IMG/VR virus record: IMGVR_UViG_3300045988_104813
DNA: 40,494 nucleotides
DNA from: a virus
Reading direction: 5' to 3' (one strand)
The notes beneath the pieces are model-generated. The model was not told the origin of the DNA, did no database searches, and saw only the letters and a list, made by a program, of their open reading frames with translations. The translations under genes and the position numbers were made by a program. This document shows, piece after piece, positions 1 to 38,722 of this stretch. Positions within the stretch are counted from its first letter, which is position 1; the number at the start of each line of letters is the position of its first letter.

Positions 1-55
1 AATGAACACAATAGGAATTGCACTGATTAGTTTCGGTATCGGACTAATCATAAGT
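1..55. repeat. Exact 55-bp terminal direct repeat, copy 1 (identical to 40440-40494); most likely an assembly overlap of a circular molecule
   Basis: Read directly: bases 1-55 = 40440-40494. Confidence 0.9.
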
Positions 56-115
56 TGGAAATTGGCAGAAAGGGACAGGAAGAATGCTAAAAAGAAAACC
101 AAAAACAGAGAATGA
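2..115 (+). CDS. Small 37-aa membrane peptide (MNTIGIALISFGIGLIISWKLAERDRKNAKKKTKNRE); one TM helix plus a basic tail; its RBS lies at the other end of the window
   Basis: ATG at 2 (same ATG as 40441); strong SD AGAGAGG at about 40428-40436 only if the sequence is circular; hydrophobic core; below the 60-aa track cut-off. Confidence 0.35.
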   Translation: MNTIGIALISFGIGLIISWKLAERDRKNAKKKTKNRE

Positions 116-225
116 GAAAACGGAAGAATATTTCCACAGAGAAGTATTTCCGATGATTAACGCATTCGCCAAGGAGTGCAGAGGACACGCAAAACAGAAA
201 ATAACGGTGAAAGGAATATTTTCAA

Positions 226-399
226 ATGAACAAATATGTAGTAATGACGGGCAGAGATGATGTAGTGGTTTTAAACGCCGATGACAACAAGTCGGTTAAG
301 GCATACATAGCAAAAGGATACGGCATAACAAACCGCATTAAAGCAAAGTATCCGCTTGAAATGAGTGTCACAAAGATTATCGGAGGAGAGAAACAATGA
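226..399 (+). CDS. Hypothetical small protein (about 57 aa); stop overlaps the ATG of the next gene (ATGA)
   Basis: AAAGGAA RBS upstream; frame supported indirectly by the track; exact frame around 355-365 uncertain in my reading. Confidence 0.3.
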   Translation: MNKYVVMTGRDDVVVLNADDNKSVKAYIAKGYGITNRIKAKYPLEMSVTKIIGGEKQ

Positions 400-692
400 C
401 AGCAAAGCAAATAACAGAATTGCACGATTTGTGTTTGCAGATTAATTTATTTGCAGAAAGACATAATCAAGCACCTATTGCTATGTATCATATGATAGGT
501 GATGAAAATCCATTTACAACTATGATATGTATAGAAATATATCAAACTGAACCGTTCAATATAATCAAAACATTTACATTTTCAACGGATACTATTTCGA
601 CCGAAGACGTAAAAGGAAGATATTACAGATTAGTTAAGAAGTATTTGAAAGATTTAGTCAAAAAGAATGTAGAGGTAAAAGAGAATGAATGA
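396..692 (+). CDS. Hypothetical early protein
   Basis: Track ORF; GGAGGAG RBS; co-oriented early operon. Confidence 0.5.
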   Translation: MTAKQITELHDLCLQINLFAERHNQAPIAMYHMIGDENPFTTMICIEIYQTEPFNIIKTFTFSTDTISTEDVKGRYYRLVKKYLKDLVKKNVEVKENE

Positions 693-855
693 CGAAGTAG
701 AGAACTACAATAATGAAGAATTTATCGAGATATTAACCGCACTTGGCAGTAACACAAAAATATTGATTAATGGTAGTGCCGATTTTGAAATACGCCATTC
801 GTGGAATAATGGTGAGCCGTATATCAATATTGTTGTAAAAGAAAAAGACCGTTAG
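685..855 (+). CDS. Hypothetical small protein (56 aa, MNDEVENYNNEEF...)
   Basis: ATG overlaps the stop of the upstream ORF (ATGAATGA); below the track cut-off. Confidence 0.3.
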   Translation: MNDEVENYNNEEFIEILTALGSNTKILINGSADFEIRHSWNNGEPYINIVVKEKDR

Positions 856-886
856 AGCTGGCACTCGTAAACGGTCAAAGGTAATT

Positions 887-904
887 ACATAGATTAATCT
901 ATGT
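887..904. promoter_or_regulatory. Perfect 18-bp palindrome ACATAGATTAATCTATGT in an AT-rich intergenic region; candidate operator overlapping promoter-like hexamers
   Basis: Read directly; lies between two early genes. Confidence 0.4.
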
Positions 905-958
905 TTTACATATATTATACCACAAAAAAATAAAAAATCAAGAAAGGAATGATAAAAA

Positions 959-1315
959 GTGGGTAATGCAAATTTATTAGAGGTCGCTCGTGGCGCAATC
1001 GGTGAAAGATTGGACTATGAACTGGGAAAGGTTGTTGATAATATCAGCGACCTAAACACAAAAGCGGACGCAGTAAGAAAGATAACATTGACGTTATCAC
1101 TAAAGCCGGACAGCGAGCGACAGAACATAAAAATGTCGACACAGGTAAAATCAACATTGACACCAACGAACAACATTGAAAGCGCGTTGTATTTGACGGA
1201 ATCAGACGAGGGCAAAGCATTAGTCGAAATGTTGCCACAAGTACCGGGACAAATGGCATTAGATGGCTCGGAGCAAGACGAGCCAAAGATTATAGCGATT
1301 AAGAAAGCAATGTAA
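959..1315 (+). CDS. Hypothetical protein (GTG start)
   Basis: Track ORF; RBS AAAGGAATG upstream. Confidence 0.45.
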   Translation: MGNANLLEVARGAIGERLDYELGKVVDNISDLNTKADAVRKITLTLSLKPDSERQNIKMSTQVKSTLTPTNNIESALYLTESDEGKALVEMLPQVPGQMALDGSEQDEPKIIAIKKAM

Positions 1316-1335
1316 TTTAAAGGAGGATAAAGATA

Positions 1336-2037
1336 ATGATTAACAAAGAGTTTATTGAAAAAATCGAGGATATGACAGGACCAAAGGTGATTGAAACCGA
1401 CCATGGCGCATTTTCAGACAAGCAACTACACAGAATTGAGGACAGATTGATTGATACAACCAAGTTGTCAAGTCTAAGTGGTTTAGTCACTATGATGAAA
1501 CAAGAAATGGACAATTATGATAAGCCATTATTCGTCAGAGTGGTATCACCGGAGCAGGTTGATGTATTGGGTACGGTCAGATATGATATGCAACGTGAAA
1601 GACCATATGTTGCATATGCAAAATTCAATAGCTTTGACTTCGACAGTTATATGAGCATTGAAAATATGATTATCTGCCTAAAGTCACGTTTTGCACCGAC
1701 AGAGGACAGAGATTATCTTGTACAGTTACTCGGCAACATTACCGATCAACAATCAGTTCAGACGAAAGATGACGGTATAACACAATCGGCAACCGTCAAG
1801 AGCGGTATTCAGCTGGTTGGCGAACAGAGAATAAAACCGATTGTTTCGCTAAAGCCATACAGAACGTTTTTAGAGGTAGAACAACCAGAAAGCGACTTCC
1901 TAATTAGATTAAAAGACGGAAGTGCGGCACTGTTTGAGGCAGACGGTGGAGCTTGGGAACGTGAGGCAGTAAAAAATATTGCGGACAAGCTAAGAGAACT
2001 ACTTGCCGATGTTCAAAATGTACATATAATCGAATAA
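1336..2037 (+). CDS. Hypothetical protein (233 aa) upstream of the recombination module
   Basis: Track ORF; RBS AAGGAGGA. Confidence 0.6.
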   Translation: MINKEFIEKIEDMTGPKVIETDHGAFSDKQLHRIEDRLIDTTKLSSLSGLVTMMKQEMDNYDKPLFVRVVSPEQVDVLGTVRYDMQRERPYVAYAKFNSFDFDSYMSIENMIICLKSRFAPTEDRDYLVQLLGNITDQQSVQTKDDGITQSATVKSGIQLVGEQRIKPIVSLKPYRTFLEVEQPESDFLIRLKDGSAALFEADGGAWEREAVKNIADKLRELLADVQNVHIIE

Positions 2038-2044
2038 TAAAAAA

Positions 2045-2068
2045 GCGGGGGAATTTAATTTCCCCCGC
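2045..2068. terminator. GC-rich hairpin GCGGGGGAA-loop-TTCCCCCGC after the 1336 gene; weak T-tract
   Basis: Inverted repeat read directly. Confidence 0.3.
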
Positions 2069-2133
2069 AATACCGTTCAACGGCATATATTATAACACGC
2101 TTATATCTTAACACATAGAAAGGAAAATGTCAA

Positions 2134-2610
2134 ATGAACATATACGAAATAGACAATGCAATGTTTTCTTTAATTGACGAAGAAACAGGCGAAATAAAGG
2201 ATTACGAGGCATTTGAAGAACTACAAATGCAGAGAGAAGAAAAAATCGAAAATACAGCGTTATGGTATAAAAATCTTGTAGCCGAGAGCAAAGCTATAAG
2301 AGAAGAAGAAAAAGCACTTGCGGAACGTCGTAAGTCGTTGGAAAACAAGGCTGAAAATCTGAAGAATTTCATAAATCGAACATTGCAAGGTAATAAATTC
2401 GCTACTCCAAAAGTGGCGATAAGTTACAGAAAGTCAACGGCGGTGGAAGTTGATGACGAATTTATCGACTATGCAATGAAGAACAACAGTGACTTACTGA
2501 CATATAAGCAACCTGAGCCGAACAAAGCGGTCATTAAGGAAATGTTGCAGGGCGGTTTTGATATTCCGCACGCAGAGTTGACCGTGAGAAACAACATGAG
2601 TATAAAATAA
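2134..2610 (+). CDS. Siphovirus Gp157-like protein (recombination/replication-module accessory)
   Basis: N-terminal MNIYEIDN..F..L..E and ISYRKS motif recalled from Gp157-family proteins; position just upstream of a Sak4-like ATPase. Confidence 0.45.
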   Translation: MNIYEIDNAMFSLIDEETGEIKDYEAFEELQMQREEKIENTALWYKNLVAESKAIREEEKALAERRKSLENKAENLKNFINRTLQGNKFATPKVAISYRKSTAVEVDDEFIDYAMKNNSDLLTYKQPEPNKAVIKEMLQGGFDIPHAELTVRNNMSIK

Positions 2611-2613
2611 GGA

Positions 2614-3258
2614 GTGATACATATGGGAATACCGGTTTTAATTATGGGCGAAAGCGGTAGCGGAAAAAGTGCAAGTATGAGAAATATGGTACCTGAAAAG
2701 GTAGGTGTATTCAATGTTGCAGGGAAACCATTACCGTTTAAAAATGGCAAAAATTTTAAAACTGCTGACAATCCGTCATACAAAACAATAATGAACAGTT
2801 TGAAAAATGCAAAGCTAAAATGCTATGTGATAGATGACAGTCAATATTTAATGGCATTTGATTTTTTTAACAAATCTAAAGAAGTAGGTTATCAGAAGTT
2901 TACCGAAATAGGATATAACTTTGAGCAACTAATACGAACAGTGCAGACTGATACACCGCACGACTGCATTGTATATTTTCTGCACCATACAGAACAGATG
3001 CCTAACGGAAGTCTTAAGGCGAAAACAATCGGCAAAATGCTTGATGAAAAATTAACGGTTGAGGGATTATTCAGTATTGTTTTGATGTGTGTTGCAGATG
3101 AAAACAAACATGTATTTTTAACACAATCAAACGGAATAAGTACGGCAAAGTCGCCTATGGATATGTTTGATTTAGAGATTGATAATGATTTAAAAATGGT
3201 TGATGAAACAATAAGGGAATATTACGGACTGAATGAGGAGGATAAAAATAATGAATAA
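2614..3258 (+). CDS. Sak4-like RecA-core ATPase (AAA_24-type), putative single-strand annealing/recombination protein
   Basis: Walker A GESGSGKS near the N-terminus; about 214 aa; between Gp157-like and SSB-like genes. Confidence 0.6.
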   Translation: MIHMGIPVLIMGESGSGKSASMRNMVPEKVGVFNVAGKPLPFKNGKNFKTADNPSYKTIMNSLKNAKLKCYVIDDSQYLMAFDFFNKSKEVGYQKFTEIGYNFEQLIRTVQTDTPHDCIVYFLHHTEQMPNGSLKAKTIGKMLDEKLTVEGLFSIVLMCVADENKHVFLTQSNGISTAKSPMDMFDLEIDNDLKMVDETIREYYGLNEEDKNNE

Positions 3259-3814
3259 AATACAAGGATATGACGAAGCACAATCGTACACAGGTGAGAG
3301 CAGAACATTGCCGGCAGGTAAATATATCTGCGAAATCAAGGGTGCAAAAGAGGTTGAAACCAAAAACGGTAAGAAACAGTTGGTATTGCAACTGGATATT
3401 GCAGAGGGCGAATATAAAGACCATTACAGTAATCTATATGCGGCGAATGCTGAAAGAAACGGAACGAACGCAAAATGGAACAACGGAGGACTTTTCAGAC
3501 AAGGATACGAGGGTAAACAATTACCATTTTTTAAAGGTATGATAAGTTGTATTGAAAAAAGCAATGAGGGCTATGAATGGAATTGGGACGAAAAAACGCT
3601 TAAGGGTAAGAAAATAGGTGTATTGTTTGGACGTGAACAATACCTGATGAACGGTCAAAAAAAATGGGCGACTAAGGCAAGAGCGGTAAGAAGTATCAAA
3701 GGATTGGAAATGTCCGAAATTCCACAGGATAAACTACTTGATGGAAGTACATCGGGATTTGATACAAGCGGATTTGATGATGAGGACGAATCGGAAGAAG
3801 ATTTGCCGTTTTAA
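3251..3814 (+). CDS. Putative ssDNA-binding protein with SSB-like acidic C-terminal tail (…DEDESEEDLPF)
   Basis: Start moved to ATG 3251 (GAGGAGG RBS, 8-nt overlap with upstream stop); acidic tail ending in LPF resembles the SSB C-terminal interaction tip. Confidence 0.5.
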   Translation: MNKIQGYDEAQSYTGESRTLPAGKYICEIKGAKEVETKNGKKQLVLQLDIAEGEYKDHYSNLYAANAERNGTNAKWNNGGLFRQGYEGKQLPFFKGMISCIEKSNEGYEWNWDEKTLKGKKIGVLFGREQYLMNGQKKWATKARAVRSIKGLEMSEIPQDKLLDGSTSGFDTSGFDDEDESEEDLPF

Positions 3815-3827
3815 TATAGGTTAAGGA

Positions 3828-5693
3828 ATGGGTGCTATGGAGAATGAAAACAGAATAACGATACCCGATTTCAGTAAGGACGATTTTTTAATATCATCAA
3901 AACCGTTTCAATGGATAATAGACCAAGCTGACGGCAACGAGTTCATCAAAGGTCAGCTTGTGGCGCAAATGGCGGACAAAGCGAAAGAACTTGATGTATC
4001 AAACTTTCGGACGCAATTCAAAAACTACGTCAGAGCGCAAAAGGGTCAAAGCATTGTTTACGGCAACGTAATGGAGTTCAGTGGCACTGCAATAATGTGG
4101 GATACAGGCGAATGGATAGCAACTGATGACGGAGTGTATAGGTTTAAAGGACAGTTCAGCGAAAAAGTGACGGCGTGTCCACACCCGATATTTATGATAA
4201 CAAGATATTCAAATGTAGATACTGATGTTGAAAGTGTGCAACTTGTTTACGGCAGACCGGGACGAAATTACAAAACTAAAATCGTCCCACGTTCTGACCT
4301 TGCAAGTGCGAATAAAATCGTAAAATTAGCTGAATACGGTGTCGGTGTAACATCGGAAAACGCAAAGGCACTTGTACAGTTTTTAAGTGATTTTGAAAGT
4401 ATAAATTACGACAAAATAATCGAAAAGAAATCGTGCGATCATATGGGTTGGGTAGGCAGAGGATTTAAAGAATTTGCACCGTATATATCAGATTTGGAGT
4501 TTGAGGGACAGGACAGTTTCAGACAGTTATTTAATTCGGTAAGAGAGGTCGGCAGTTATGAAAAATGGCTTAAAACAATCAGAGATTACCGCAAAAACGG
4601 TAATATAGTTGTTCGCATGGTTATGGCGGCGAGTTTTGCGAGTGTACTGTTAAAACCGCTTGGAGCATTGCCGTTCTTCGTTCACCTATGGGGCGATACA
4701 GAAACGGGTAAATCGGTTGCGCTACTTGCGGCAGTGTCTGTATGGGCTGAGCCGGTTATCGGTAAATATGCCTATACATTCAATTCTACTGATGTAGGTA
4801 ATGAATTATATGCGGCGTGTTTAAATTCACTGCCGTTATGTATGGACGAATTGCAGATACTGAATAAACGTTCGGATTTTGATGATATAATATATCGTCT
4901 GTGCGAGGGTACAGGACGTTTACGCGGTAAAAAAGATGGTGGTATACAAAATATTAAGACGTGGCGAAATTGTATTATAACCACAGGCGAACGCCCGATA
5001 ACGTCAATGTCTTCCGGTGGCGGTGCGGTCAATCGTGTTATTGAAATAGAATGTAACGGCGGTAAGTTCTTCAAAAATCCGAGAGAATTTTGCAGAACGA
5101 TACAGTCAAGCTATGGTCACGCAGGCAAAGTATTTGTTGAGAATTTGACCGAAAATCTTGCAGAGGCAAGAGAATTACACGAAAAATACATAAAGCTGTT
5201 AGAGGACAATACGGACGCCACAGACAAACAAATTGCGTCAGCGGCGGCATTATTAACCGCTGATGAACTGTCTGAACGTTGGATATTTAATGACGGTATA
5301 AGAATAGGCATAGATGATATTAAGCCATATTTACAGACAAAGGATATGCTGAACGTCAACAGACGTGCCTATGACTATTTGCGTGAAGAAGTTATTTCTA
5401 ACTATAACAATTTTAAAAACAATGATAACGAGTGTTGGGGAATTGCTAAAGAAGGTTATATATATATTTTGCGAAACAAATTCAATGCAATATTGCAAAG
5501 CGGAAATTTCAATCCACAATCGACGCTTTCGTGGATGGCGAGAAACGGTAAGCTTGCAAAAACAGACGGTCGCAATCTTTCTGTTAAAGTGCAGATAAAC
5601 GGTACAAGAATACGTTGTATTTGCTTGCACGAAGATGATGGAGAGTTTACAGAAATGGATATTGATGATGAAGATTTGCCATTTGATATTTAA
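3828..5693 (+). CDS. Large replication protein: P-loop NTPase/helicase-like (Walker A GDTETGKS; DUF927/VirE/D5-like class) with an acidic C-terminal tail (…DIDDEDLPFDI)
   Basis: Track ORF, 621 aa; Walker A read directly; followed immediately by an iteron/AT-rich region. Confidence 0.55.
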   Translation: MGAMENENRITIPDFSKDDFLISSKPFQWIIDQADGNEFIKGQLVAQMADKAKELDVSNFRTQFKNYVRAQKGQSIVYGNVMEFSGTAIMWDTGEWIATDDGVYRFKGQFSEKVTACPHPIFMITRYSNVDTDVESVQLVYGRPGRNYKTKIVPRSDLASANKIVKLAEYGVGVTSENAKALVQFLSDFESINYDKIIEKKSCDHMGWVGRGFKEFAPYISDLEFEGQDSFRQLFNSVREVGSYEKWLKTIRDYRKNGNIVVRMVMAASFASVLLKPLGALPFFVHLWGDTETGKSVALLAAVSVWAEPVIGKYAYTFNSTDVGNELYAACLNSLPLCMDELQILNKRSDFDDIIYRLCEGTGRLRGKKDGGIQNIKTWRNCIITTGERPITSMSSGGGAVNRVIEIECNGGKFFKNPREFCRTIQSSYGHAGKVFVENLTENLAEARELHEKYIKLLEDNTDATDKQIASAAALLTADELSERWIFNDGIRIGIDDIKPYLQTKDMLNVNRRAYDYLREEVISNYNNFKNNDNECWGIAKEGYIYILRNKFNAILQSGNFNPQSTLSWMARNGKLAKTDGRNLSVKVQINGTRIRCICLHEDDGEFTEMDIDDEDLPFDI

Positions 5694-5922
5694 AATAACC
5701 GCCCTAACTGCCCTACAAAACCGACGTAAAACAATATGTGTATATTATAGAATATTTTTTTGAATTATTTATAATTAATAATTTTTATAAAAATAAAAAA
5801 GTATAAAAATGTGTAGGGCGGTAGGGCATTGGATAAAAAAATGTGTAATAATGCGGTCTAAAATATGCCCGACATTAAATTTTTGAAATTAGGGCAATAG
5901 GGCATATATAAGGAGTTAAACA
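5694..5922. promoter_or_regulatory. Candidate replication origin: three paired GCCCTA/TAGGGC iterons flanking a roughly 75-bp AT-rich stretch
   Basis: Iteron pairs at about 5701-5715 (+), 5814-5827 (-), 5890-5903 (-); AT-rich 5733-5810; directly downstream of the helicase-like gene. Confidence 0.5.
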
Positions 5923-7173
5923 ATGAAATTATTTGATTATCAAGAAAAAGCACTTGCATTAACGAGTGATAAAGACAATTCGGCATTTTACTATGATATG
6001 GGTTTAGGTAAGACATTTATAGGCAGTGAACGAATGCGATTATACGGTGAACGTGTGAATGTAGTCGTGTGTCAGAAGTCTAAAATCAAGGATTGGTACG
6101 AACATTTCAAAGAACATTATACAGATTATGCGGTATTTGATTTGACGAACAAAAAAGATATGCAGGCATTTATGACATATCCGATATACAAATGTATCGG
6201 TATTATAAATTACGAACTGGCATACAGACGTGAAGAATTAAAACAATTAACGAATTTTACAATGATGTTAGATGAAAGTTCGATGATTAAGAATGAAACT
6301 GCAAAACGTACGAAGTTTATACTTTCACTGAAACCGTCACATACAATATTGTTATCCGGTACACCGACAGACGGCAAGTATGAGTTCCTGTATTCGCAAT
6401 TACGCTTGTTAGGTTGGAAGATTACCAAAACGGCATATTATAACCGATACATAAAAACGGAATTGCGAAGTTACGGCGGTCCAATGTTCAGAGTAGTTAC
6501 AGGATACAAGAATGTAAGCGAATTAAAGGCAAAACTAAAGGAATACGGAGTGGTATTTGCTAAGGCAGAAGAAGTTATTAAGTTACCTGAAAAGAAGTTT
6601 ATCAAGGAATATTCGACTGTTTCATCAGACTATAAAAAGTTTATGAAAGACCGAGTAATCAAGATAGACGATAAGGAATTGACAGGCGACAGTACATTGT
6701 CAAAAAGACTGTATGCAAGAATGTTATGCAGTGCATATAGCAAAGACAAAATATCGCGATTAATTGATTTAGTTAATTCTACATCTGACAGGGTTATTAT
6801 ATTCTACAATTTCAATACCGAACTTGAAGCATTAAGAAAAGTGCTGTTTGATAGACCAATAAGCATAGTAAACGGACAAGTTAAGGACCTAAAGGAATAC
6901 GAAAATAACGATAATTCAGTTACATTGATACAATATCAAGCCGGAGCTATGGGATTAAATTTGCAAAAGGCGAACAGAATTATATATTTTTCTCTGCCGG
7001 AACGTTCGGAACTGTTTGAGCAATCAAAAGCGAGGATATGCCGTATCGGTCAAGAAAAACAATGCTATTATCACATAATGATGTGTCATAAGAGCGTGGA
7101 AGAAAAGATATATGAGTGTCTGTTAATGCGAAAAGATTATACAGACGAATTATTCAGAAAGGAATTTGGCTGA
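5923..7173 (+). CDS. SNF2/DEAD-like superfamily II helicase
   Basis: Motif I YDMGLGKT, motif III LLSGTP; classic phage partner of VRR-NUC. Confidence 0.8.
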   Translation: MKLFDYQEKALALTSDKDNSAFYYDMGLGKTFIGSERMRLYGERVNVVVCQKSKIKDWYEHFKEHYTDYAVFDLTNKKDMQAFMTYPIYKCIGIINYELAYRREELKQLTNFTMMLDESSMIKNETAKRTKFILSLKPSHTILLSGTPTDGKYEFLYSQLRLLGWKITKTAYYNRYIKTELRSYGGPMFRVVTGYKNVSELKAKLKEYGVVFAKAEEVIKLPEKKFIKEYSTVSSDYKKFMKDRVIKIDDKELTGDSTLSKRLYARMLCSAYSKDKISRLIDLVNSTSDRVIIFYNFNTELEALRKVLFDRPISIVNGQVKDLKEYENNDNSVTLIQYQAGAMGLNLQKANRIIYFSLPERSELFEQSKARICRIGQEKQCYYHIMMCHKSVEEKIYECLLMRKDYTDELFRKEFG

Positions 7174-7469
7174 TGGCAGAGGAAAAGAATTTTGAAAACC
7201 GAGTTAAGCAATGGCTTAGAAGTAAAGGCTGTTATGTGGTTAAATATTATGGTTGCGGAGGTACAAGAGCGGGCGTTCCTGATTTAATTGTATGTGCAAA
7301 TGGTAGATTTATCGGTGTTGAAATTAAAGCTGAACACGGTAAGCTTGCACCGCTACAACGTAGTCATTTAGATAAAATATTAACTTCCGGCGGTGCGGTA
7401 GCAGTGATTAGACCGTCAGAATTTGACGGGTTTAAGAAATTCATTGAGGAAGTGTTGAATGATGATTGA
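7173..7469 (+). CDS. VRR-NUC domain nuclease (PD-(D/E)xK)
   Basis: GVPDLIV…GVEIK motif; start moved to ATG 7173 overlapping the helicase stop (TGATG); AAAGGAA RBS. Confidence 0.75.
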   Translation: MAEEKNFENRVKQWLRSKGCYVVKYYGCGGTRAGVPDLIVCANGRFIGVEIKAEHGKLAPLQRSHLDKILTSGGAVAVIRPSEFDGFKKFIEEVLNDD

Positions 7470-7716
7470 TAAAGCTACAAGAAATAAGCTGAAAGCTAAG
7501 GCAAACGAATTGTCGGATATATGTGTAACCGATGGCGAAAAGTTTGCAAAATGCTATGATGATATGTATAACAGTGGTGAATTTAATTGCGGGGAATGTT
7601 TCATCATAGCACGATTAGCTGATTTATATACTGCAATAAAACAGGGCATTATTGATAAAAATGACGGTGCTAAACAGCAAAGTGAGATATTTAAGGTGAT
7701 TGAATTGGAGGAATAG
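7459..7716 (+). CDS. Hypothetical protein (85 aa, Cys-containing)
   Basis: Track ORF. Confidence 0.45.
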   Translation: MMIDKATRNKLKAKANELSDICVTDGEKFAKCYDDMYNSGEFNCGECFIIARLADLYTAIKQGIIDKNDGAKQQSEIFKVIELEE

Positions 7717-7720
7717 AGTA

Positions 7721-8299
7721 ATGAGAACAGAACAATTTGAAGAAGTTATAAACAACCGCATAGAAACGTGTAAAAGCGTTCTATGCAGTAAAGCAGAAGA
7801 ATACGCAACCGATGATAGATTACATAATTTCAAAGTGGCAGGCGAATTGCAGAAATGCACAGCGGTTAAAGCGTTAGGCGGTATGATGGCAAAGCATACT
7901 GTCAGCGTGTATGATTTGATTGACGATTACGAACAGGGCAAGGCAATATCAAAAGAAATGTGGGCTGAAAAGATAGGTGACAGTATAAATTATCTGCTGT
8001 TACTTACGGCGCTGTTGGAGGAAGATAAAAATTTTGAGCCGATGAAAAGAGAAATGACATACGAACAAACAATAGAGGTTATTACAAATGCTATACAAAA
8101 AGACGAAATGACTGTCGAACGAGATATGGCATTGGCTATTGTACAAAAAACATTAAAAAAACAAATTCCCAAAAAAATAGAATTCGACGGCAATCAACTC
8201 ATTTGTCCTAATTGCGGCAATGGTACAGATATATTATTTGGCGATAAATATTGCGTTGAATGCGGACAGCATTTAGATTGGAGTTGGGCGATTCAATGA
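7721..8299 (+). CDS. Hypothetical protein with C-terminal CxxC…CxxC zinc ribbon; N-terminal region possibly MazG-like NTP pyrophosphohydrolase
   Basis: Start moved to ATG 7721 (GGAGGAA RBS); helices with EE…GEL and DSINYLLLLTALLEE resemble MazG signatures (weak); CPNCG…CVECG read directly. Confidence 0.4.
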   Translation: MRTEQFEEVINNRIETCKSVLCSKAEEYATDDRLHNFKVAGELQKCTAVKALGGMMAKHTVSVYDLIDDYEQGKAISKEMWAEKIGDSINYLLLLTALLEEDKNFEPMKREMTYEQTIEVITNAIQKDEMTVERDMALAIVQKTLKKQIPKKIEFDGNQLICPNCGNGTDILFGDKYCVECGQHLDWSWAIQ

Positions 8300-8431
8300 G
8301 CAAAAAGTATAAGGGATTTAAGGGTAGCGGCTACAACAAAAAGTCGCTACCGTAAAACGTTGCTGAAAATTATAAAAAAGGCAATGGCGAGCAAGTTGGA
8401 AATTGATTGTAAGTATTGAGGAGGATGCATA

Positions 8432-8890
8432 ATGCGAGAGATACTATTCAGAGGTAAACGTATAGACAATGGAGAATGGATAACGGGCGGTATATTTCAG
8501 CAAAAAGCTGATGATGTAAAAGATGAAGTAGTGTATATAATTGATAATTCATCAAATGATGTTGACTGGGCACATAGGGTTATACCTGAAACAGTAGGAC
8601 AATTTACAGGAGTTACCGACAAAAAAGGAAACCGAGTCTTTGAGGGAAGTATATTCCGATATGAACCGCATTTCACAACGGAGAAAGCGTGTTTAGGAAT
8701 AGTTAAATACAGAAATACATACGACAGACAACGTGCGTGTAATGACTGTGGTTTTGTCATAGAGTGGCAACATGAGCCGTTATTGACGCTACGAGAAGAT
8801 TTATTATACTGGTGCGGTGACGGGAAATCAGCCAGTGTTATAGGCAATATACACGATATGAATGATAATCCCGAATTGTTTGAGGAATAA
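8432..8890 (+). CDS. YopX-family phage protein
   Basis: N-terminal ILFRGKRIDNGEWITG pattern characteristic of YopX. Confidence 0.55.
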   Translation: MREILFRGKRIDNGEWITGGIFQQKADDVKDEVVYIIDNSSNDVDWAHRVIPETVGQFTGVTDKKGNRVFEGSIFRYEPHFTTEKACLGIVKYRNTYDRQRACNDCGFVIEWQHEPLLTLREDLLYWCGDGKSASVIGNIHDMNDNPELFEE

Positions 8891-8893
8891 AAA

Positions 8894-9208
8894 ATGAAAG
8901 AATGGAAAGTCAAAAAGAATGAATTTGGAGAAGAATGGCACGAACTTCGTTTTAGCCCATTTTATGAAGATGATGATGAGGTAATTGCGAGCTTTGTTCA
9001 AGATGAAATGGATGATGAAGCATTTTATTATATATCAAAAGAATTAAGTGCAGACGATGACCTATTGTGGGCTGATAGTATAGATGACGCAAAGCAACAA
9101 ATCGAAGAAATGCTAATTGAGCATTGGAAAGATGAGATTGAATATTTAGAGGACAGATTAAAGGAATTTCAAGAAAAAAATAAACGGAGGAAAAGTAATG
9201 CAAGTTGA
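8894..9208 (+). CDS. Very acidic small protein (104 aa, many D/E); candidate DNA-mimic/anti-defence protein
   Basis: Track ORF; composition read directly. Confidence 0.5.
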   Translation: MKEWKVKKNEFGEEWHELRFSPFYEDDDEVIASFVQDEMDDEAFYYISKELSADDDLLWADSIDDAKQQIEEMLIEHWKDEIEYLEDRLKEFQEKNKRRKSNAS

Positions 9209-9728
9209 ATTAAAAGTGAACGGTAAAACCGTTCACGCTGAAATATCAGAAGAACAAGCTAAAATATTGGGATTGGTTGAGGATACGCCTAAAACTGGAT
9301 ATGAGAGGGGCAAAAACGGTAAACTGTATTATTGTGTTGAGGAAGACGGTCATCTGTTACGTTACGCAGAAGGAAATGATTCAGCAGATGATAATTTTTA
9401 TGGTATAGGTAATTATTACAGCGATAAAACCATTGCCGAGAACAATGCTCGTGCAGACAGATTGCAACGTTGTCTAAGACAATGGCAGGCACAAAACGAC
9501 GAGCCTATTTCAGTAGAAGATTGGAACAATGAAAGTAAAAAGAAGTGGTTTATTATATATAGTTCTGAAGAAATGTACGCAGAGTATTATTATATTATGC
9601 GATTACCTAATACAATATATTTCGCCACCAAGGAAAAAGCAGAGGAAGCTATCGAAGTATTCAAAGATGAACTGCTATGGTATTTTACCGAGTATGTTCA
9701 GAGATTAGACGAGATGCAAAATGACTAA
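9198..9728 (+). CDS. Hypothetical protein (176 aa)
   Basis: Track ORF; overlaps neighbours by a few nt (operon coupling). Confidence 0.55.
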   Translation: MQVELKVNGKTVHAEISEEQAKILGLVEDTPKTGYERGKNGKLYYCVEEDGHLLRYAEGNDSADDNFYGIGNYYSDKTIAENNARADRLQRCLRQWQAQNDEPISVEDWNNESKKKWFIIYSSEEMYAEYYYIMRLPNTIYFATKEKAEEAIEVFKDELLWYFTEYVQRLDEMQND

Positions 9729-10038
9729 AGAACAATTATGTTGGACGTGCCAGAAAGCTTGTGGTGGTTGTTCGTGGAGCAGTTGCTTTCAGCCTGTTGA
9801 GGGTTGGACTGCTGAAAAGGTACACCGCAAGACGTATGATTCGTATAGAATAACAAAGTGTCCGGAATATGTATCGGATAAAGCAAGCAATTCTGAAAAC
9901 AAGAAAAAGACACGAGTAACCAACAAAGAATTAGATACAATGAAAAGATTAAGAGATGATGGCCTATCATATTTTGAAATAGCAAAGATTGTAGACAGAA
10001 ACCCTGACGTGGTTAGGGTGAATTTGGTGAGGTGTTGA
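9721..10038 (+). CDS. Putative regulator: N-terminal Cys cluster (CWTCQKACGGCSWSSC) plus C-terminal HTH (LSYFEIAKIVDRNPDVVRVNL)
   Basis: Motifs read directly. Confidence 0.45.
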   Translation: MTKEQLCWTCQKACGGCSWSSCFQPVEGWTAEKVHRKTYDSYRITKCPEYVSDKASNSENKKKTRVTNKELDTMKRLRDDGLSYFEIAKIVDRNPDVVRVNLVRC

Positions 10039-10039
10039 T

Positions 10040-10702
10040 ATGGATAAAACAGCGAAGAAGTTAAAGCAGAAACGCAGAGCCGTAAGGCAGGCGATAAAGA
10101 ACGCCGAAGAAGAAAGAATATTAAAAAATTTTGATGAAATTGCAAAGAAACGCGGTATTAAGAAATTCAATAGAAAGAAAGCATTGCAGTCGTACAAGAT
10201 TGTTGAAAACGAAGTTACAACAGAGGGTGTTGTCAATCTTGTGGTAGTAGGTGCGTGGTATCTGCGTATAAAATGCAAATGGGGTCAAAAACGCGTGTGT
10301 CAATACATAGAGGGAGTTATTCGATATATTGGGGTTGTGTATAACCGTGAACGCGATATTGATAAACTCGCAGAGGAATTAAAAGATGAGTGTGATTTTG
10401 ATTATGAAAAACTGATGAACGATTTTGACCCACTAAAAATCAAGACAAGCACTGCCGAGCAAGACCATATTAAAATGGTTACGTGTGCAATGAAAAACAA
10501 TGCACCTATAATCCTGTATACGTTCTATTCAATGTTGAAATGGAAGAAGAAACGTATAACAGAATTAGGACAGGCAATAAAAGATGTTTTAATGGGTATG
10601 CAGGACGGCAAGCTGAAAGAGGTTAAAGATGTCGTAAGAAAAGAATGCGGTATGACATTCTATTACGACGGACGTATTGAATATTTAGACAGGAGGAATT
10701 GA
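10040..10702 (+). CDS. Hypothetical protein (220 aa)
   Basis: Track ORF. Confidence 0.55.
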   Translation: MDKTAKKLKQKRRAVRQAIKNAEEERILKNFDEIAKKRGIKKFNRKKALQSYKIVENEVTTEGVVNLVVVGAWYLRIKCKWGQKRVCQYIEGVIRYIGVVYNRERDIDKLAEELKDECDFDYEKLMNDFDPLKIKTSTAEQDHIKMVTCAMKNNAPIILYTFYSMLKWKKKRITELGQAIKDVLMGMQDGKLKEVKDVVRKECGMTFYYDGRIEYLDRRN

Positions 10703-10703
10703 T

Positions 10704-11105
10704 TTGACGAAAGAAGAGCTAAAACAGTATCGCAGTATTGTTGCAGAATTAAACGAGGTAAATGACAGAATAAACAGTAATACAGTACACGGTACTGTCA
10801 CAGGCTCTGACGCTGAATTTCCGTACGTCAAGCACTGTATTTCTGTGTCGGGTGTTGAGCCAACACATATATCTGATATTGTACTACGTCAACGATTGGA
10901 GCGGCAAAAAAACAAGATTGAATTGTTTGTTGCCGGTATATTAGACAGTGAAACACGTCGCATATTCCGATACAGGTACATAGACGGCACCGTAATGCCG
11001 TCATGGCAGTGGATTGCATTTAAGATAGGGCATTACGATGAGAGTTATCCACGAAGAAAACATAATAAATTTTTAAAAATGCCGAATTTGCCGAAAAAAG
11101 TGTGA
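10704..11105 (+). CDS. Putative late-gene transcriptional activator (sigma-70 region-4-like, DUF1492/ArpU/RinA-class)
   Basis: C-terminal RRIFRYRYIDG…SWQWIAFKIGHYDES resembles ECF region 4; last gene before a terminator and the packaging region. Confidence 0.45.
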   Translation: MTKEELKQYRSIVAELNEVNDRINSNTVHGTVTGSDAEFPYVKHCISVSGVEPTHISDIVLRQRLERQKNKIELFVAGILDSETRRIFRYRYIDGTVMPSWQWIAFKIGHYDESYPRRKHNKFLKMPNLPKKV

Positions 11106-11286
11106 TACAATTTATAATGCGAAAAGAATGAGCAAACAAAAAATAATGCAAAACATATATACAGTGCAATATTTTGTGTTCTATATCTTACCGCTCGTTA
11201 TTTTCGTAAAAAAGGTAGTGTATCGTCGTGAGATGATGGGTGAATATCTCGTGTGATTGGTGGGAGTGGAGATATTAAGTCAATTA

Positions 11287-13050: not shown

Positions 13051-13083
13051 TTAATCGGAAAATGTGAAAGCGAGGTGATAAGA

Positions 13084-13557
13084 GTGACTGAAAAGCAAAA
13101 GTTGTTTTGTGAGGAATATTTGATTGATTTGAACGCGACACAAGCGGCATTAAGAGCGGGATATTCGGAAAAGACGGCGTATTCGATTGGAAATGAGAAC
13201 TTGAAGAAACCTGAAATTCAAGAATACATACAAAAGCGGCTAAAAGAGAAAGAGGACGCTCTTATCGCCAAACAAGATGAGGTGTTAAAGACGTTAACCG
13301 CCGTTATGCGACGTGAGAAACCCGAAACGGTTGTTGTGACGTGCAAAGCACGTAAATCACACTATGACGACAAGGGCAAGAAAGTCACTGACGAGGCGGA
13401 GCAACCGATATGTGTTGAAATACCGACAAAGGTGTCGGACGTAAACAAAGCGGCGGAAATGTTGGGTAAATACTACGCATTGTTCACAGAAAAGCTGAAT
13501 GTTGACGGTGATATGGACTACAGCATTAAAATTGATTACGGTGGTGAGGACGAATGA
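13084..13557 (+). CDS. terS: Terminase small subunit
   Basis: N-terminal LTEKQKLFCEEYLIDLNATQAALRAGYS pattern typical of phage TerS; probable GTG start with GAGGTGA RBS; directly upstream of terL. Confidence 0.8.
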   Translation: MTEKQKLFCEEYLIDLNATQAALRAGYSEKTAYSIGNENLKKPEIQEYIQKRLKEKEDALIAKQDEVLKTLTAVMRREKPETVVVTCKARKSHYDDKGKKVTDEAEQPICVEIPTKVSDVNKAAEMLGKYYALFTEKLNVDGDMDYSIKIDYGGEDE

Positions 13558-14792
13558 ACAAAATAACAGTACCGTTCAATCCGATATTTAAGCCTGTACA
13601 TCAATGTAAAAAGCGATACGTTGTGATGAAAGGCAGTGCCGGAAGTGGCAAGAGTGTTGATACCGCACAACTGTACATATTGCGTTTAATGCGTGACAAA
13701 GGGCGTAATTTGGTATGTGTGCGAAAGTCCGATATAACAAACCGTGACAGTACATTTGCCGAATTAGAATCAGCCATAAACCGTATGGGCGTTGGCAGAG
13801 CGTGGAGAGTTACGCAAAGCCCGTTGTCGTTCACCTGTATAAACGGCAACAAGATTATATTTCGTGGTGTCAACGATAACAAACAACGCGAAAAGCTGAA
13901 ATCAATCACATTTGCGAACGGAAAATTAACGGACGTATGGATTGAAGAGGCTACGGAGCTTGTGCAACAGGATTTTGAAATTATAGATGACCGTTTGAGA
14001 GGTGAACTCCCCGACGGTCTTTTTTATCAGATAAAATTGACATTTAACCCTGTATCGTCAAGTCACTGGATAAAGAAAGTGTTTTTCGATATACAGGACG
14101 ATAACGTCTTAACGCACCAAAGCACATATTTAACAAACCGATTTTGTGACGAGGCATACAGACAACGTATGCTACGTCGTAAAGAAGTTGACCCTGAGGG
14201 CTACAGGATTTACGGACTGGGTGAATGGGGCGAAACAGGCGGATTGATATTCTCAAATTATCGCATTGAAGAATTTGAAACAGATATGAGCCGTTTTGAC
14301 GCTATGGCGATAGGACAGGACTTCGGATTTAATCACGCAAACGCCATATTGACGTTAGGTTATAAGGACGGTGATATTTACGTTTGTAATGAACTGTATG
14401 TATACGAAATGGATACAACCGAAATTATCACTAAGGCTGACGGGAATTTCAGCAAAAGTCTTGTAATGTGGTGCGACAGTGCAGAGCCGGACCGTATAAA
14501 AATGTGGCGAAAGGCAGGCTATCGCGCAAGGGCAGTTGTTAAAAATCCGAACAGCATACAATCGCAGATTGACTGGTTAAAAGGCAGAAAGATACACATT
14601 CACCCGTCTTGCGTGAACGTGATAAAAGAGATACAGCAATGGCGTTGGCGAGTTGATGAGAAGTTGGGCGAGTATACTGACGAACCTGTCAATGTATTTG
14701 ATGACGCAATGGCGGCACTGAGATACGGCGTTGAGAGTTGGCGCAAGGATAAAAAAGCTAAAATCTATTCAAGAGAGGAGTACGGAATATGA
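13554..14792 (+). CDS. terL: Terminase large subunit (PBSX/Terminase_3-type)
   Basis: Walker A GSAGSGKS; size and position. Confidence 0.9.
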   Translation: MNKITVPFNPIFKPVHQCKKRYVVMKGSAGSGKSVDTAQLYILRLMRDKGRNLVCVRKSDITNRDSTFAELESAINRMGVGRAWRVTQSPLSFTCINGNKIIFRGVNDNKQREKLKSITFANGKLTDVWIEEATELVQQDFEIIDDRLRGELPDGLFYQIKLTFNPVSSSHWIKKVFFDIQDDNVLTHQSTYLTNRFCDEAYRQRMLRRKEVDPEGYRIYGLGEWGETGGLIFSNYRIEEFETDMSRFDAMAIGQDFGFNHANAILTLGYKDGDIYVCNELYVYEMDTTEIITKADGNFSKSLVMWCDSAEPDRIKMWRKAGYRARAVVKNPNSIQSQIDWLKGRKIHIHPSCVNVIKEIQQWRWRVDEKLGEYTDEPVNVFDDAMAALRYGVESWRKDKKAKIYSREEYGI

Positions 14793-21178: not shown

Positions 21179-21796
21179 ATGGCAAATACAGCAAAAAGAA
21201 AACCACTACCTACAATAGGTGTGGACAAGTATACTTTCTTTAAAGTGAATGAGGACAGCGTTAGCGGAACGGAATACGGAGAAGCGTATAATTTGAAAGG
21301 AACGGTTGAAATTGCACCGACTGACAGCGGTGGCAGTGATGTTTTTGATGCGGACAACGGTGCGTATGAGGCGTCAAGCTATATCGAAAAATTGGGACAC
21401 GATATTACAAATGCCGATATTCCGCCGGAGGTTGACGCAATGTGGCGTGGATTGACACGCAAAAACGGTGTGGTTGAAGTCGGAAACGATGTTAAAACAG
21501 TATATTTCGGTGTGGCATGGAGAATTTTGAAGTCCGACGGCTCGTACCGTTATGTAAGATACTACAAGGGTTCATACAGCTTTGCGTCAAACGTCGGAGG
21601 TAAAACAAAAGCGTCAAGCGGTGCGCCTGAAAAGCAAACCGCAAAGGCTACATATACAGCCGTACAGCGTGATTTTGACAACAACTATTACGCATACTTT
21701 GACGAATGCGATTTGCCGGAAGGTGTCACAAAGACAGAACTTGAGGAAAATTGGTTTAAGGATATGAACTACTATCCTGTAAAGAAAGGACTGTAA
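21179..21796 (+). CDS. Major tail protein (TP901-1/phi13-like)
   Basis: Size and position directly before the chaperone/tape-measure genes. Confidence 0.7.
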   Translation: MANTAKRKPLPTIGVDKYTFFKVNEDSVSGTEYGEAYNLKGTVEIAPTDSGGSDVFDADNGAYEASSYIEKLGHDITNADIPPEVDAMWRGLTRKNGVVEVGNDVKTVYFGVAWRILKSDGSYRYVRYYKGSYSFASNVGGKTKASSGAPEKQTAKATYTAVQRDFDNNYYAYFDECDLPEGVTKTELEENWFKDMNYYPVKKGL

Positions 21797-21903: not shown

Positions 21904-21966
21904 ATGAGTGAAACCACAATACAACTTGTATTGATTTTGCTTATTGTATGGATATTAAAGAAATAA
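21904..21966 (+). CDS. Tiny 20-aa hydrophobic peptide ORF (MSETTIQLVLILLIVWILKK) with GGAAAGGAAA RBS; may equally be part of a non-coding leader/sRNA
   Basis: Read directly; follows the promoter at 21809. Confidence 0.2.
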   Translation: MSETTIQLVLILLIVWILKK

Positions 21967-22098
21967 CCGCCCTAACGCAATAGGACGGTTATTTGGGTAG
22001 AAAAATATTTTCTACACTAAATATAAACTAATGTATTAGAAACGGCTGTTTACCGTTCCTCTTATATCTAAATTATAACACAATAAAAAATGTATGTC

Positions 22099-36690: not shown

Positions 36691-36720
36691 ATAGGTGGCT
36701 ACGTGCCACCTATTTTTTAT
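36691..36720. terminator. Bidirectional terminator ATAGGTGGC-acgt-GCCACCTAT flanked by A-tract and T-tract between endolysin (+) and integrase (-)
   Basis: Read directly. Confidence 0.75.
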
Positions 36721-37748
36721 TTGTTTTCGTTTATGCGGTTTATTGCGTCAATACCTGCATAGTACAAATTAGTTGCATATGTATGACGGAATATATGTGG
36801 TGTAACGTCTTTTGCGATTAATCGTATAGCCGTGTCCGAACGTGAAAACTCGTCACCGCCTGCGGCAACATTCATCTTATCTAATATATTATACCAAAAA
36901 CGACGAAACGATGATTTTGTCATAGGTTCACCGCTTTTCATTGTAAATAAATATATATTTTTTGCGTGTGCAATATATTCTTGCAATTCTGACAATAGTT
37001 TTGCCGGAAGAGGAATGGAGCGGTTGCCTGCGTTTGTTTTAGGCGAATTTTTTAGGTGACTTTCACCGTCCTTTATCACCAAATTTTTGTTTATGATTAA
37101 TCTGCGATTTTTAAAATCAATATCTTTGACGGTCAAAGCCAGTGCTTCACCGCGTCTTACACCAGTGTAATATAGTAGATCTACAAATACACGTTCACGC
37201 TGTGTCAGTTTTGCTTTTTCAAAAATTGCTTTCTCTTCGTTCGATAATGACCGCTTTTCTTTCTTTTGTGATTGCGGTAATGAAACTTTCAACGAAACGT
37301 CCTTGTAGATGTATTCGTTTATTATCGCTTGTTGGATAATCTGTTTTATCGTCAGTCTAACGATTTCAGCAGTTCGGTAATGACCGACACTGATAATGTC
37401 ATTTAACATTTCTTGAATATGATGTGACTTCAACGCACTTAAACGAATACCGCCTATTTCGGGTATAATGTGCGAATTTAGGGCGTTTAAATACATTGCA
37501 TAGGTGTTATACTCTTTCGCTGATTTGTACAGCTTTAGCCACTTTATTCCCCATTGCTCTACGGTCATACCCTCATCATTGATAATGATGCCTTTATTTT
37601 GCAGGCTCTTGAACTCGGCGACCTTTTTGTCCAGTTCCATAATTGTACGACCGTACAGTGTTTTACGTTTCGGTTTGCCGTCGTCTGTATATCCAACAAT
37701 CGTACTTGTTGCATAACGTCCGTCGGGACGTTTTTTATATTTAGCCAT
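36717..37748 (-). CDS. int: Tyrosine recombinase / phage integrase
   Basis: C-terminal HIFRHTYATNLYYAG (R…H..R…Y catalytic pattern); start moved to MAKYKK (AGGAG RBS). Confidence 0.9.
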   Translation of the reverse strand: MAKYKKRPDGRYATSTIVGYTDDGKPKRKTLYGRTIMELDKKVAEFKSLQNKGIIINDEGMTVEQWGIKWLKLYKSAKEYNTYAMYLNALNSHIIPEIGGIRLSALKSHHIQEMLNDIISVGHYRTAEIVRLTIKQIIQQAIINEYIYKDVSLKVSLPQSQKKEKRSLSNEEKAIFEKAKLTQRERVFVDLLYYTGVRRGEALALTVKDIDFKNRRLIINKNLVIKDGESHLKNSPKTNAGNRSIPLPAKLLSELQEYIAHAKNIYLFTMKSGEPMTKSSFRRFWYNILDKMNVAAGGDEFSRSDTAIRLIAKDVTPHIFRHTYATNLYYAGIDAINRINENK

Positions 37749-37847
37749 AAATAACACTCCTTTTTCGTTTTTTTGTATTGAAAATAGAGTGCATTTGTGT
37801 TACAATATCATTGGTATGGGATATTGTGTATAAATGCACTTTATTCT

Positions 37848-37973: not shown

Positions 37974-38696
37974 TTAGAATGTTTCTTCGCAAATACCCAA
38001 AACTTTACCGCAACATTCGTTTCTGATATATTCATTAATGATTATATCGGAATATTTTTCATTATGTGAAATTAATCTGTCAACACCTAATTCCTTAACA
38101 TATGCGTTACCGTCCACAACAAATATCCCGATTTCACCGATTTCAATACTTGGCTGTTCTTTGACGAATAACTTATCGCCGTTGTGATATGTCGGCTCCA
38201 TACTGTCACCCGATACACGAACAATGAAATCTGTTCCCTTTGGCGGTTGTTCTGTTAGGTCAACCTTTTCAGGATATTCTTCGTCCAACGGGTTGCCTGT
38301 TCCTGCCGATACGGGCATATCGTAATAAGGTACTTGGTATTTTTTTATTGGTATGATGTTATCGTAATTTGGTTCGTTTGGAATATTACGTTCTAACTCT
38401 TTTCTTATAACCACTTGAACAACTTCTTTACTGTGGTCATCAAGTTTTCTGTAATCGGATACTAATTTTTTTTCTACCGCTGAATAATTTTTTAAGTTAG
38501 AATTGTCATCAAAATCTTCGAGAGTACATTCTAAGGCTCTTGCGATAGCTTTTATAGTATCTATTTGAGGGTCTTTAGTCACTCCCGATAATATTTTTTT
38601 TAAGGTACTTATCGGAACACCAGATTTTTGCGATAACGTTTCTATTTTCATTTTTTTTGATTTGCGAATTTCTGATATTTTTGTTCCTATACTCAT
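37974..38696 (-). CDS. CI-like repressor: N-terminal XRE HTH plus C-terminal S24 LexA-like autopeptidase
   Basis: HTH KIETLSQKSGVPISTLKKIL; SGDSMEP…K peptidase motif; divergent from the cro-like gene; start moved to ATG 38696. Confidence 0.85.
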   Translation of the reverse strand: MSIGTKISEIRKSKKMKIETLSQKSGVPISTLKKILSGVTKDPQIDTIKAIARALECTLEDFDDNSNLKNYSAVEKKLVSDYRKLDDHSKEVVQVVIRKELERNIPNEPNYDNIIPIKKYQVPYYDMPVSAGTGNPLDEEYPEKVDLTEQPPKGTDFIVRVSGDSMEPTYHNGDKLFVKEQPSIEIGEIGIFVVDGNAYVKELGVDRLISHNEKYSDIIINEYIRNECCGKVLGICEETF

Positions 38697-38722
38697 AACA
38701 TTCAAACCTCCTTTTCAAAATC

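Follow-up and report, generated by a model that had tools for sequence, protein, structure and literature searches.

The closest described counterparts of the locus reported here are the replicons of the staphylococcal pathogenicity islands (SaPIs). Their Rep proteins are self-loading helicases that recognize penta- or hexanucleotide iterons through a C-terminal winged-helix domain, and their origins are described as 6–12 such iterons directly downstream of rep around an AT-rich centre, with at least two iterons per side in opposite orientation and with ATP-independent melting (PMC9371898). A primase gene (pri) beside rep or fused to it is typical and reported to be non-essential (PMC7581432). 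The Cch helicases (DUF927) of the staphylococcal cassette chromosome (SCC) are related to SaPIbov1 Rep; the SCC origin had not previously been identified, and a putative one has been given for the Cch2 type only (PMC7581432). For phage helicases of the DUF927/Cch type, no origin is described in the literature that we searched. Here we analyse the viral contig IMGVR_UViG_3300045988_104813 (40,494 nucleotides, the whole of which is referred to as the window) and a candidate for such an origin at 5694–5922, immediately downstream of a gene for a helicase of this type (3828–5693). We put the probability that this segment serves a temperate phage of gut Clostridia as its replication origin, of the SaPIbov1 Rep/ori type, at roughly 85%.

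The helicase gene ends with a TAA codon at 5691–5693 and the next open reading frame (ORF) starts at 5923; the space between them is taken up by short repeats and an AT-rich stretch (Table 1). The hexamer GCCCTA or its complement TAGGGC occurs ten times in the window, and six of these copies fall within 203 bp (5701–5903), the Poisson probability of at least six in 229 bp at the background rate being 2e-13. A first-pass annotation of this DNA had listed three iteron doublets, and exact hexamers are indeed present at all three places. Together with a degenerate seventh copy, the order across the segment is two forward, AT-rich core, two reverse, one forward and two reverse iterons. The doublet TAGGGCNNTAGGGC has exact matches only at the two right-hand pairs in the whole window. 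Whereas the repeats had been described as lying about one helical turn apart, their measured spacings (9, 8 and 8 bp) are somewhat under a turn. The first iteron begins 8 nt past the helicase stop codon, and the outer right pair ends 7 nt ahead of the AAGGAG ribosome-binding site (5910–5915) of a SNF2-family gene.

The extreme AT richness noted at first reading is likewise real. The 80-nt duplex at 5727–5806 is the least stable of the window (nearest-neighbour ΔG of −75.7 kcal/mol versus a mean of −103.9, s.d. 6.8), and the A+T content of 92.5% at 5730–5809 is the window's maximum. The inner iterons are separated by a gap of 98 bp that is 86% AT. Two of the three doublets bracket the AT-rich core as proposed; the third does not, and lies 76 bp further to the right beside the ribosome-binding site. 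No DnaA box, even with one mismatch, is present in 5694–5922, and the count of such boxes across the window is at chance level. Searching the whole window against Rfam returned no family at gathering score, the sole hit being a chance-level snoRNA at 5632–5687.

The protein encoded by 3828–5693 fits the earlier description of the upstream gene as an initiator/helicase: it is homologous to two self-loading initiator helicases, SaPIbov1 Rep and Cch. Pfam assigns it DUF927 (E = 1e-40) and the Cch helix-turn-helix HTH_56 (E = 3e-18), and phmmer against the PDB finds 8tch (E = 4.5e-21) and 5dgk (E = 4e-14). The same two structures, SaPIbov1 Rep (8tch; E = 4e-27, target-normalised template-modelling (TM) score 0.68–0.70) and SCCmec Cch (5dgk), are the top Foldseek fold matches of an AlphaFold2 model (mean predicted local distance difference test score, pLDDT, 84.4); sequence identity to SaPIbov1 Rep is just 17–19% over the Foldseek structural alignment. 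The model contains a helix-turn-helix and a beta wing at residues 549–601, with the predicted recognition helix at 563–572 and the wing strands at 586–601. At the level of sequence, the locus matches SaPI replicons in the helicase family, in the position of the candidate origin directly 3′ of the gene, in the number of hexamers (6–7) and in an AT-rich centre with at least two opposed iterons on each side.

The iteron word and the C-terminal domain of the helicase switch together. We compared 26 IMG/VR relatives in which the helicase is 87–99% identical to that of the window and the downstream region is retained. Nine of these carry GCCCTA (class A) and 17 carry GTCCCC (class B) at equivalent positions, and the replacement affects every iteron position: left arm, inner right, single forward site and outer right. 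The ribosome-binding site is identical in the two groups. Class B helicases are ~100% identical to that of the window over residues 1–510, beyond which successive 30-column blocks of the last 110 residues are only 76, 63, 36 and 43% identical; this divergent part is the HTH_56 domain. None of the 50 substitutions that separate class A from class B falls before residue 522. They are densest at 571–596, a segment that comprises the end of the predicted recognition helix and the beta wing, and they point to iteron-reading residues at around 571–596. A co-switch of this kind would be expected of a C-terminal domain that reads the iterons and, because domain and iteron word change together, we infer that the winged-helix domain (approximately residues 510–601) does so. 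Two relatives illustrate the relationship from opposite sides: L042 has the same iteron (GCCCTAC) with 71% identity in the helicase core and 88% in segment 560–600, whereas L014 has a different iteron with 100% identity in the core and 50% in the same segment.

At the DNA level, the exchanged unit stands out most clearly in the comparison with L014. The window and L014 are 100% identical from 828 to ~5330 and again from 5908, with identities of 32–72% in 40-nt bins over ~5350–5907 and of 88% in the boundary bin starting at 5348. More generally, the flanks of this cassette in near-identical phages are ~100% identical upstream and 91–100% identical downstream, and the start region of the SNF2 gene is identical between both origin classes. 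Other variable blocks of the 7.8-kb locus (2628–3078, and from 8028 onward) do not segregate by iteron class (L011, L019). Variants of the helicase body (columns 420–510) and the classes of C-terminal domain plus origin occur in all four combinations, so that the cassette recombines independently of the helicase body. One contig, L034 (IMGVR_UViG_3300023505_000049), was omitted from the protein comparison because its helicase frame breaks at 382 amino acids; its DNA runs on past the break into a class B origin, and the break could stem from a frameshift, from recombination or from faulty assembly.

The arrangement extends far beyond these close relatives. Among IMG/VR sequences, 438 relatives of the helicase were detected, and the layout was assessed in 38 representatives, comprising 16 that were examined first and 22 further ones from IMG/VR. 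All 16 of the former, with helicase identities of 33–95%, display it. In four named phages with helicases 33–39% identical to that of the window (Anaerostipes AC844P2, R. gnavus phiRg507T2_3, Roseburia Jekyll and Thermoanaerobacterium THSA-485A), the helicase gene is followed by a non-coding gap of 210–365 bp, in which short repeats that differ between the phages are oppositely oriented around an AT-rich core; the layout is also found in one metagenome-assembled genome (69% identity) and eight metagenomic contigs (44–75%), and by eye in nearly all of the 22 further representatives (41–46%). A strict rule, requiring that the helicase gene be followed closely by exact-hexamer iterons on both sides of an AT-rich gap and inverted across it, was passed by 26 of the 38, 22 of these having a gap of at least 70% AT, and by none of 620 random control segments drawn from the same sequences. 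Within the window, the only tiles that passed were those over 5694–5922. Several of the failures, inspected by eye, have degenerate iteron copies (L007, L014, L042, PT1028) or the palindromic word GTATAC (L128/L141).

At least ten iteron words are used in this arrangement, among them GCCCTA, GTCCCC, TGTAACC, GCCCCA, GGCAACA, GTTCCC, GCACACA, GTGTAAC, GGTAACCG and GTAACA, and the order of sites is constant: two or three forward iterons, an AT-rich gap of 73–115 bp, two or three reverse iterons, a spacer, one forward iteron, one to three reverse iterons and the ribosome-binding site. In the relatives, the gap is mostly 70–86% AT, and 63–69% in four of them. A single forward iteron at the position of 5867–5872 recurs in L041, L042, L043, L005, L014 and others. 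Downstream of its Rep, the staphylococcal SaPI-like element PT1028 has its sites in this order too, the iteron being AGTTCCC.

Some relatives display features of their own in this region. In R. gnavus phage phiRg507T2_3 (L002), a gene for a 58-residue protein annotated as 'DNA binding regulatory protein' (gp43, 4803–4979) separates the helicase gene from the iteron/AT-rich region, and the origin is therefore not always directly beside the helicase stop codon. L041 (75% identity) contains at 3361–3660, upstream of the canonical origin, additional GCCCCA iterons together with another CGCAT box (described below), which suggests that its origin is partly duplicated; its AT-rich core contains a run of N. 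In many relatives (L045, L047, L048, L115, L128, L144, L149 and others), motifs resembling YTATATAG border the AT-rich core on both sides; the window shows this weakly at 5745–5760. Relatives at 42–46% identity have a CTC(A/G)CGCGTATAGAG element ~15–25 nt ahead of the inner reverse iterons.

In addition to the iterons, a box that is conserved irrespective of the iteron word lies in the spacer that separates the inner reverse iterons from the lone forward one. Of 16 origin regions, 13 contain the pentamer CGCAT, whereas 2000 shuffles gave 3.8 on average and never more than 10; among GC-containing 7-mers, ACCGCAT is shared by the most regions (16 of 38). In its longer form, the consensus reads AAACCGCAT-N6-AGCC and continues into a run of T or A, the bare 9-mer AAACCGCAT being too short to be origin-specific alone. 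The box varies in orientation, is unchanged by iteron class and is common to phages with at least ten iteron specificities (carriers include L005, L041, L046, L113, L004, L001 and L002), with a weak resemblance in PT1028. Neither a −35/−10 promoter nor a consistent hairpin accounts for it, given its variable orientation and the presence of stems in some loci only.

We tentatively advance a joint proposal, possible but on balance doubtful, that this box is an undescribed, iteron-independent element of the origins of this helicase family, serving as a docking or priming site, and that the ~560-bp unit is a mobile specificity module. If this were true, the box would be the docking or priming site of a conserved factor, for example the host primase or the conserved helicase body. 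The unit of domain plus origin would be shuffled between otherwise identical phages, possibly with selection imposed by replicon competition or by origin-hijacking satellites.

The initial suggestion that 5694–5922 is a replication origin is supported by the homology of the helicase, the SaPI-like layout, the conservation of this layout across at least ten iteron words and the co-switch. From the sequence we infer iteron binding, melting, double-hexamer loading and origin activity, the individual steps of the following scheme being proposed because of the homology with SaPIbov1 Rep. The 3828–5693 helicase would act as initiator and replicative helicase at once. The C-terminal winged-helix domains of helicase oligomers would bind GCCCTA in the inverted pairs that flank 5727–5810, and the opposed pairs would place two helicase assemblies face to face across the AT-rich core. 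The core would melt, and two hexamers would load themselves onto the single strands and unwind outwards with 3′–5′ polarity, giving a bidirectional start. Priming would presumably fall to the host primase, because no phage primase gene was recognized. The sites on the right-hand side (the forward iteron at 5867–5872 and the pair at 5890–5903) and the CCGCAT box may be auxiliary origin elements.

Alternatively, the repeats might be operators through which the C-terminal domain of the helicase, or another protein, regulates the SNF2 gene cluster, making the segment a control region and no origin. The outer iteron pair does lie 7 nt from the AAGGAG ribosome-binding site, the region is situated between two co-oriented genes, and initiators of iteron replicons often autoregulate. 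However, promoter and terminator predictions over 5400–6200 gave counts below shuffle expectation, with neither a sigma-70-like promoter on the + strand nor a terminator, and a pure operator would have no need for a 98-bp spacer prone to unwinding. By contrast, inverted iterons that face each other across an extremely AT-rich core, at a distance conserved at 73–115 bp, match the SaPIbov1 Rep origin paradigm (PMC9371898). Regulation as the sole function therefore seems unlikely to us. Even less probable is a centromere-like partition site, a packaging site (pac/cos) or a recombination site. Partition and packaging sites are indeed made up of short repeats in clusters, which in some cases surround AT-rich DNA, but no ParA/ParB-like genes are found nearby, the phage integrates, as indicated by a tyrosine integrase and a CI-like repressor at 36.7–38.7 kb, and the terminase genes are 7 kb away; in all three cases, it would also have to be explained why the repeats co-switch with the C-terminal domain of the helicase and with nothing else in the 7.8-kb locus.

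The repeats also form part of a long inverted repeat, ACCGCCCTA ... TAGGGCGGT, the 9-nt arms of which (5698–5706 and 5814–5822) are perfectly complementary, and this could be taken as an RNA or DNA hairpin, a terminator or a processing site after the helicase gene. Moreover, the 16-mer AAATAACCGCCCTAAC at 5693–5708 recurs exactly at 21961–21976 (0.01 expected), where it belongs to a true stem-loop. Against this, the arms are 107 nt apart, no terminator-like site is predicted, the corresponding arms in relatives are two or three tandem iterons in many different words instead of a single stem, and the 16-mer is not retained even in relatives with the same iteron (L007 has AATATAACTGCCCTAAC); a hairpin function is accordingly judged very improbable, on a par with partition or packaging. 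Finally, the small size of the motif is all that speaks for a functionless chance arrangement in an AT-rich spacer, an explanation effectively refuted by the Poisson value of 2e-13, by the failure of all 620 control segments and by the persistence of the layout across at least ten iteron words.

Several observations nevertheless weigh against a replication origin at this site. No primase gene was recognized among the genes in 1–11200 of the window, whereas SaPIs and many relatives have one beside the helicase gene. L045, L046, L047 and L048 encode either a small Zn_ribbon_DnaG protein directly upstream of the helicase or a ~900-residue helicase whose N-terminal domain is NrS-1 polymerase-like; the upstream position is taken in the window by a gene for a DUF669 protein resembling single-stranded DNA-binding protein (SSB). 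A GC-skew switch, which had been put forward as a check, is absent at 5694–5922, where the skew shows no inflection and instead climbs monotonically over 1–37 kb with the direction of transcription. Because skew tracks transcription, it is uninformative about the origin, and no switch is expected where transcription is uniform in direction. The right-hand iterons adjoin the ribosome-binding site of the next gene, and helicase binding there could be regulatory, perhaps alongside a function in the origin. Lastly, the co-switch was followed across a locus of 7.8 kb, and a factor encoded outside this locus might, formally, co-vary as well.

Table 1. Positions in the 40,494-nt window of the candidate origin, the helicase gene and other features named in the text.
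Feature	Position	Strand	Remarks
Initiator-helicase gene, 621 aa	3828-5693	+	DUF927 AAA+ helicase core and C-terminal Cch-type HTH/winged-helix domain
Coding region of predicted C-terminal DNA-binding domain, residues 510-621	5355-5690	+	HTH_56 at residues 510-603
Candidate specificity cassette, ~560 bp (helicase C-terminal domain and whole origin)	5350-5907	.	Window versus L014
Left iteron pair GCCCTA	5701-5706, 5710-5715	+	Spacing 9 bp; within CCGCCCTAactGCCCTAC at 5699-5716
AT-rich core, predicted DNA-unwinding element	5727-5810	.	Lowest stability and highest AT per 80 nt
Inner right iteron pair TAGGGC	5814-5819, 5822-5827	-	Spacing 8 bp; inverted relative to left pair
Conserved box, independent of iteron word; core CCGCAT	5834-5862 (core ATGCGG 5851-5856)	-	Enrichment in origin regions
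Seventh, degenerate iteron GCCCGA	5867-5872	+	One mismatch; orientation as in left arm
Outer right iteron pair TAGGGC	5890-5895, 5898-5903	-	Spacing 8 bp
SNF2-family helicase gene, right boundary of candidate origin	5923-7173	+	Pfam SNF2-rel_dom, Helicase_C
Small and large terminase genes	13075-14792		~7 kb from repeats
Tyrosine integrase	36717-37757	-	
CI-like repressor	37974-38705	-	

The second occurrence of the 16-mer has to be interpreted separately. The recurrence at 21961–21976, pointed out in the first-pass annotation, is confirmed; the 16-mer there forms the 5′ arm of a 14-bp stem-loop (21961–21995, AAATAACCGCCCTA-acgcaa-TAGGaCGGTTATTT), and a role as an accessory iteron site does not hold. 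A second helicase-binding site at 21961–21995 was considered and rejected: the hairpin is identical in L054 (the contig of L023), whose origin is of class B (GTCCCC), and in 34 IMG/VR copies the stem is kept and the loop varies. Because it is conserved whatever the origin class, the hairpin is, as a structure predicted from sequence, a terminator-like RNA or DNA element unrelated to origin specificity. It is located downstream of the likely major tail gene (21179–21796), in a gap where a hydrophobic mini-ORF of 20 codons (MSETTIQLVLILLIVWILKK, 21904–21966) is followed by two adjacent stem-loops (21961–21995 and ~21996–22018; folding z-score −4.3).

A search of IMG/VR with the 15-mer GTAGGGCGGTAGGGC returned 45 stretches, some on contigs of known relatives and many elsewhere, the total being near a rough chance estimate. 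Two of these stretches, L196 and L205, belong to a 56-kb viral contig (IMGVR_UViG_3300045988_128361) and have the 15-mer three times each at 16-nt spacing; GTAGGGCGGTAGGGC contains the iteron doublet word, which is the sole reason for this match.

The window as a whole is a complete temperate siphovirus-like phage genome, which also has genes for an N6-methyltransferase and an amidase. The candidate origin is embedded in a replication/recombination module at 2.1–7.5 kb that encodes Gp157, a Sak4-like annealing protein, the DUF669/SSB-like protein, the helicase, the SNF2 helicase and a VRR-NUC nuclease. Upstream of this module, a 118-residue ORF (959–1315, + strand) matches PHROG 997, 'replication terminator' (E = 1e-30). 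Relatives originate from human-gut viromes and from metagenome-assembled Clostridia genomes, for example Hominilimicola (Oscillospiraceae). Megablast of 3800–7200 against GenBank phages returned no match, and relatives are reachable at the protein level only.

Neither the kind of element described here nor the C-terminal location of specificity in Rep is new; both are already established, and no concept is changed. What the analysis provides is a concrete origin candidate for a group of temperate gut-Clostridia phages that is large and has seen no experimental work, together with natural swaps of domain plus origin from GCCCTA to GTCCCC between identical flanks, which amount to a ready-made specificity experiment. 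A possible use lies in the design of orthogonal replicons or phage-based vectors for gut anaerobes.

Origins that combine iterons with an AT-rich unwinding region are familiar from phage lambda, where the origin lies inside the O gene, O is no helicase and P delivers the host DnaB; related lambdoid phages exchange iteron and initiator-domain specificity together. Iteron plasmids of the RepA/pi class have direct repeats of ~17–22 bp, usually with DnaA boxes. A review of both kinds of origin is given in PMC4980987. The locus described here resembles these systems in having iterons beside an AT-rich unwinding region and in the paired exchange of iteron and initiator domain. It differs from the lambda type in that the iterons are intergenic and the predicted initiator is itself the helicase, and from iteron plasmids in that the units are of 6 nt, are arranged in inverted sets and are not accompanied by a DnaA box. 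In eukaryotic viruses, the superfamily 3 (SF3) initiator-helicases SV40 large T antigen and papillomavirus E1 have their DNA-binding domain N-terminal to the helicase, whereas here it is C-terminal and the relation is seen as weak fold hits only. The resemblance to them lies in short repeats of opposite orientation, which should let two hexamers assemble over an easily melted region. An analogy to the origins of SV40 large T antigen and E1 is drawn in PMC7581432.

Among phages, a SaPI-like origin has been predicted from sequence for Enterococcus phage Abitsa, with repeats around an AT-rich region beside the gene for a self-loading helicase (PMC13517437). Abitsa is lytic and has a PriRep5/D5 helicase, as opposed to DUF927/Cch here, and seven 10-bp repeats; co-variation of the kind found here is not reported for it in the accessible part of that source. 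SCCmec Cch (5DGK) has the same Pfam architecture of DUF927 and HTH_56 as the helicase of the window. In SCC Cch2, a C-terminal domain binds repeats just downstream of the helicase gene, but Cch2 is of the D5/Primase_Cterm family, and its repeats are three direct copies of AAGTG, without inverted sets around an AT-rich core (PMC7581432). The system that comes closest is that of SaPIbov1 (Ubeda et al. 2007, 2012, as related in PMC9371898 and PMC7581432; 8TCH). Its helicase is homologous and constitutes the best match in sequence and in fold, and, as far as these accounts describe SaPI origins, the likeness extends to the position directly 3′ of the gene, to hexanucleotide iterons (6–7 here versus 6–12), to an AT-rich centre with opposed iterons and to specificity residing in a C-terminal winged-helix domain, to which the co-switch points here; the detailed order of sites is shared with PT1028. 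Unlike the SaPIs, the carrier is a complete temperate phage of gut Clostridia and no staphylococcal satellite island, the iteron word is GCCCTA, an adjacent primase gene was not recognized, and origin function is deduced by comparison. With this candidate, the SaPIbov1 Rep/ori paradigm would reach beyond the satellites of staphylococci and take in complete phages.

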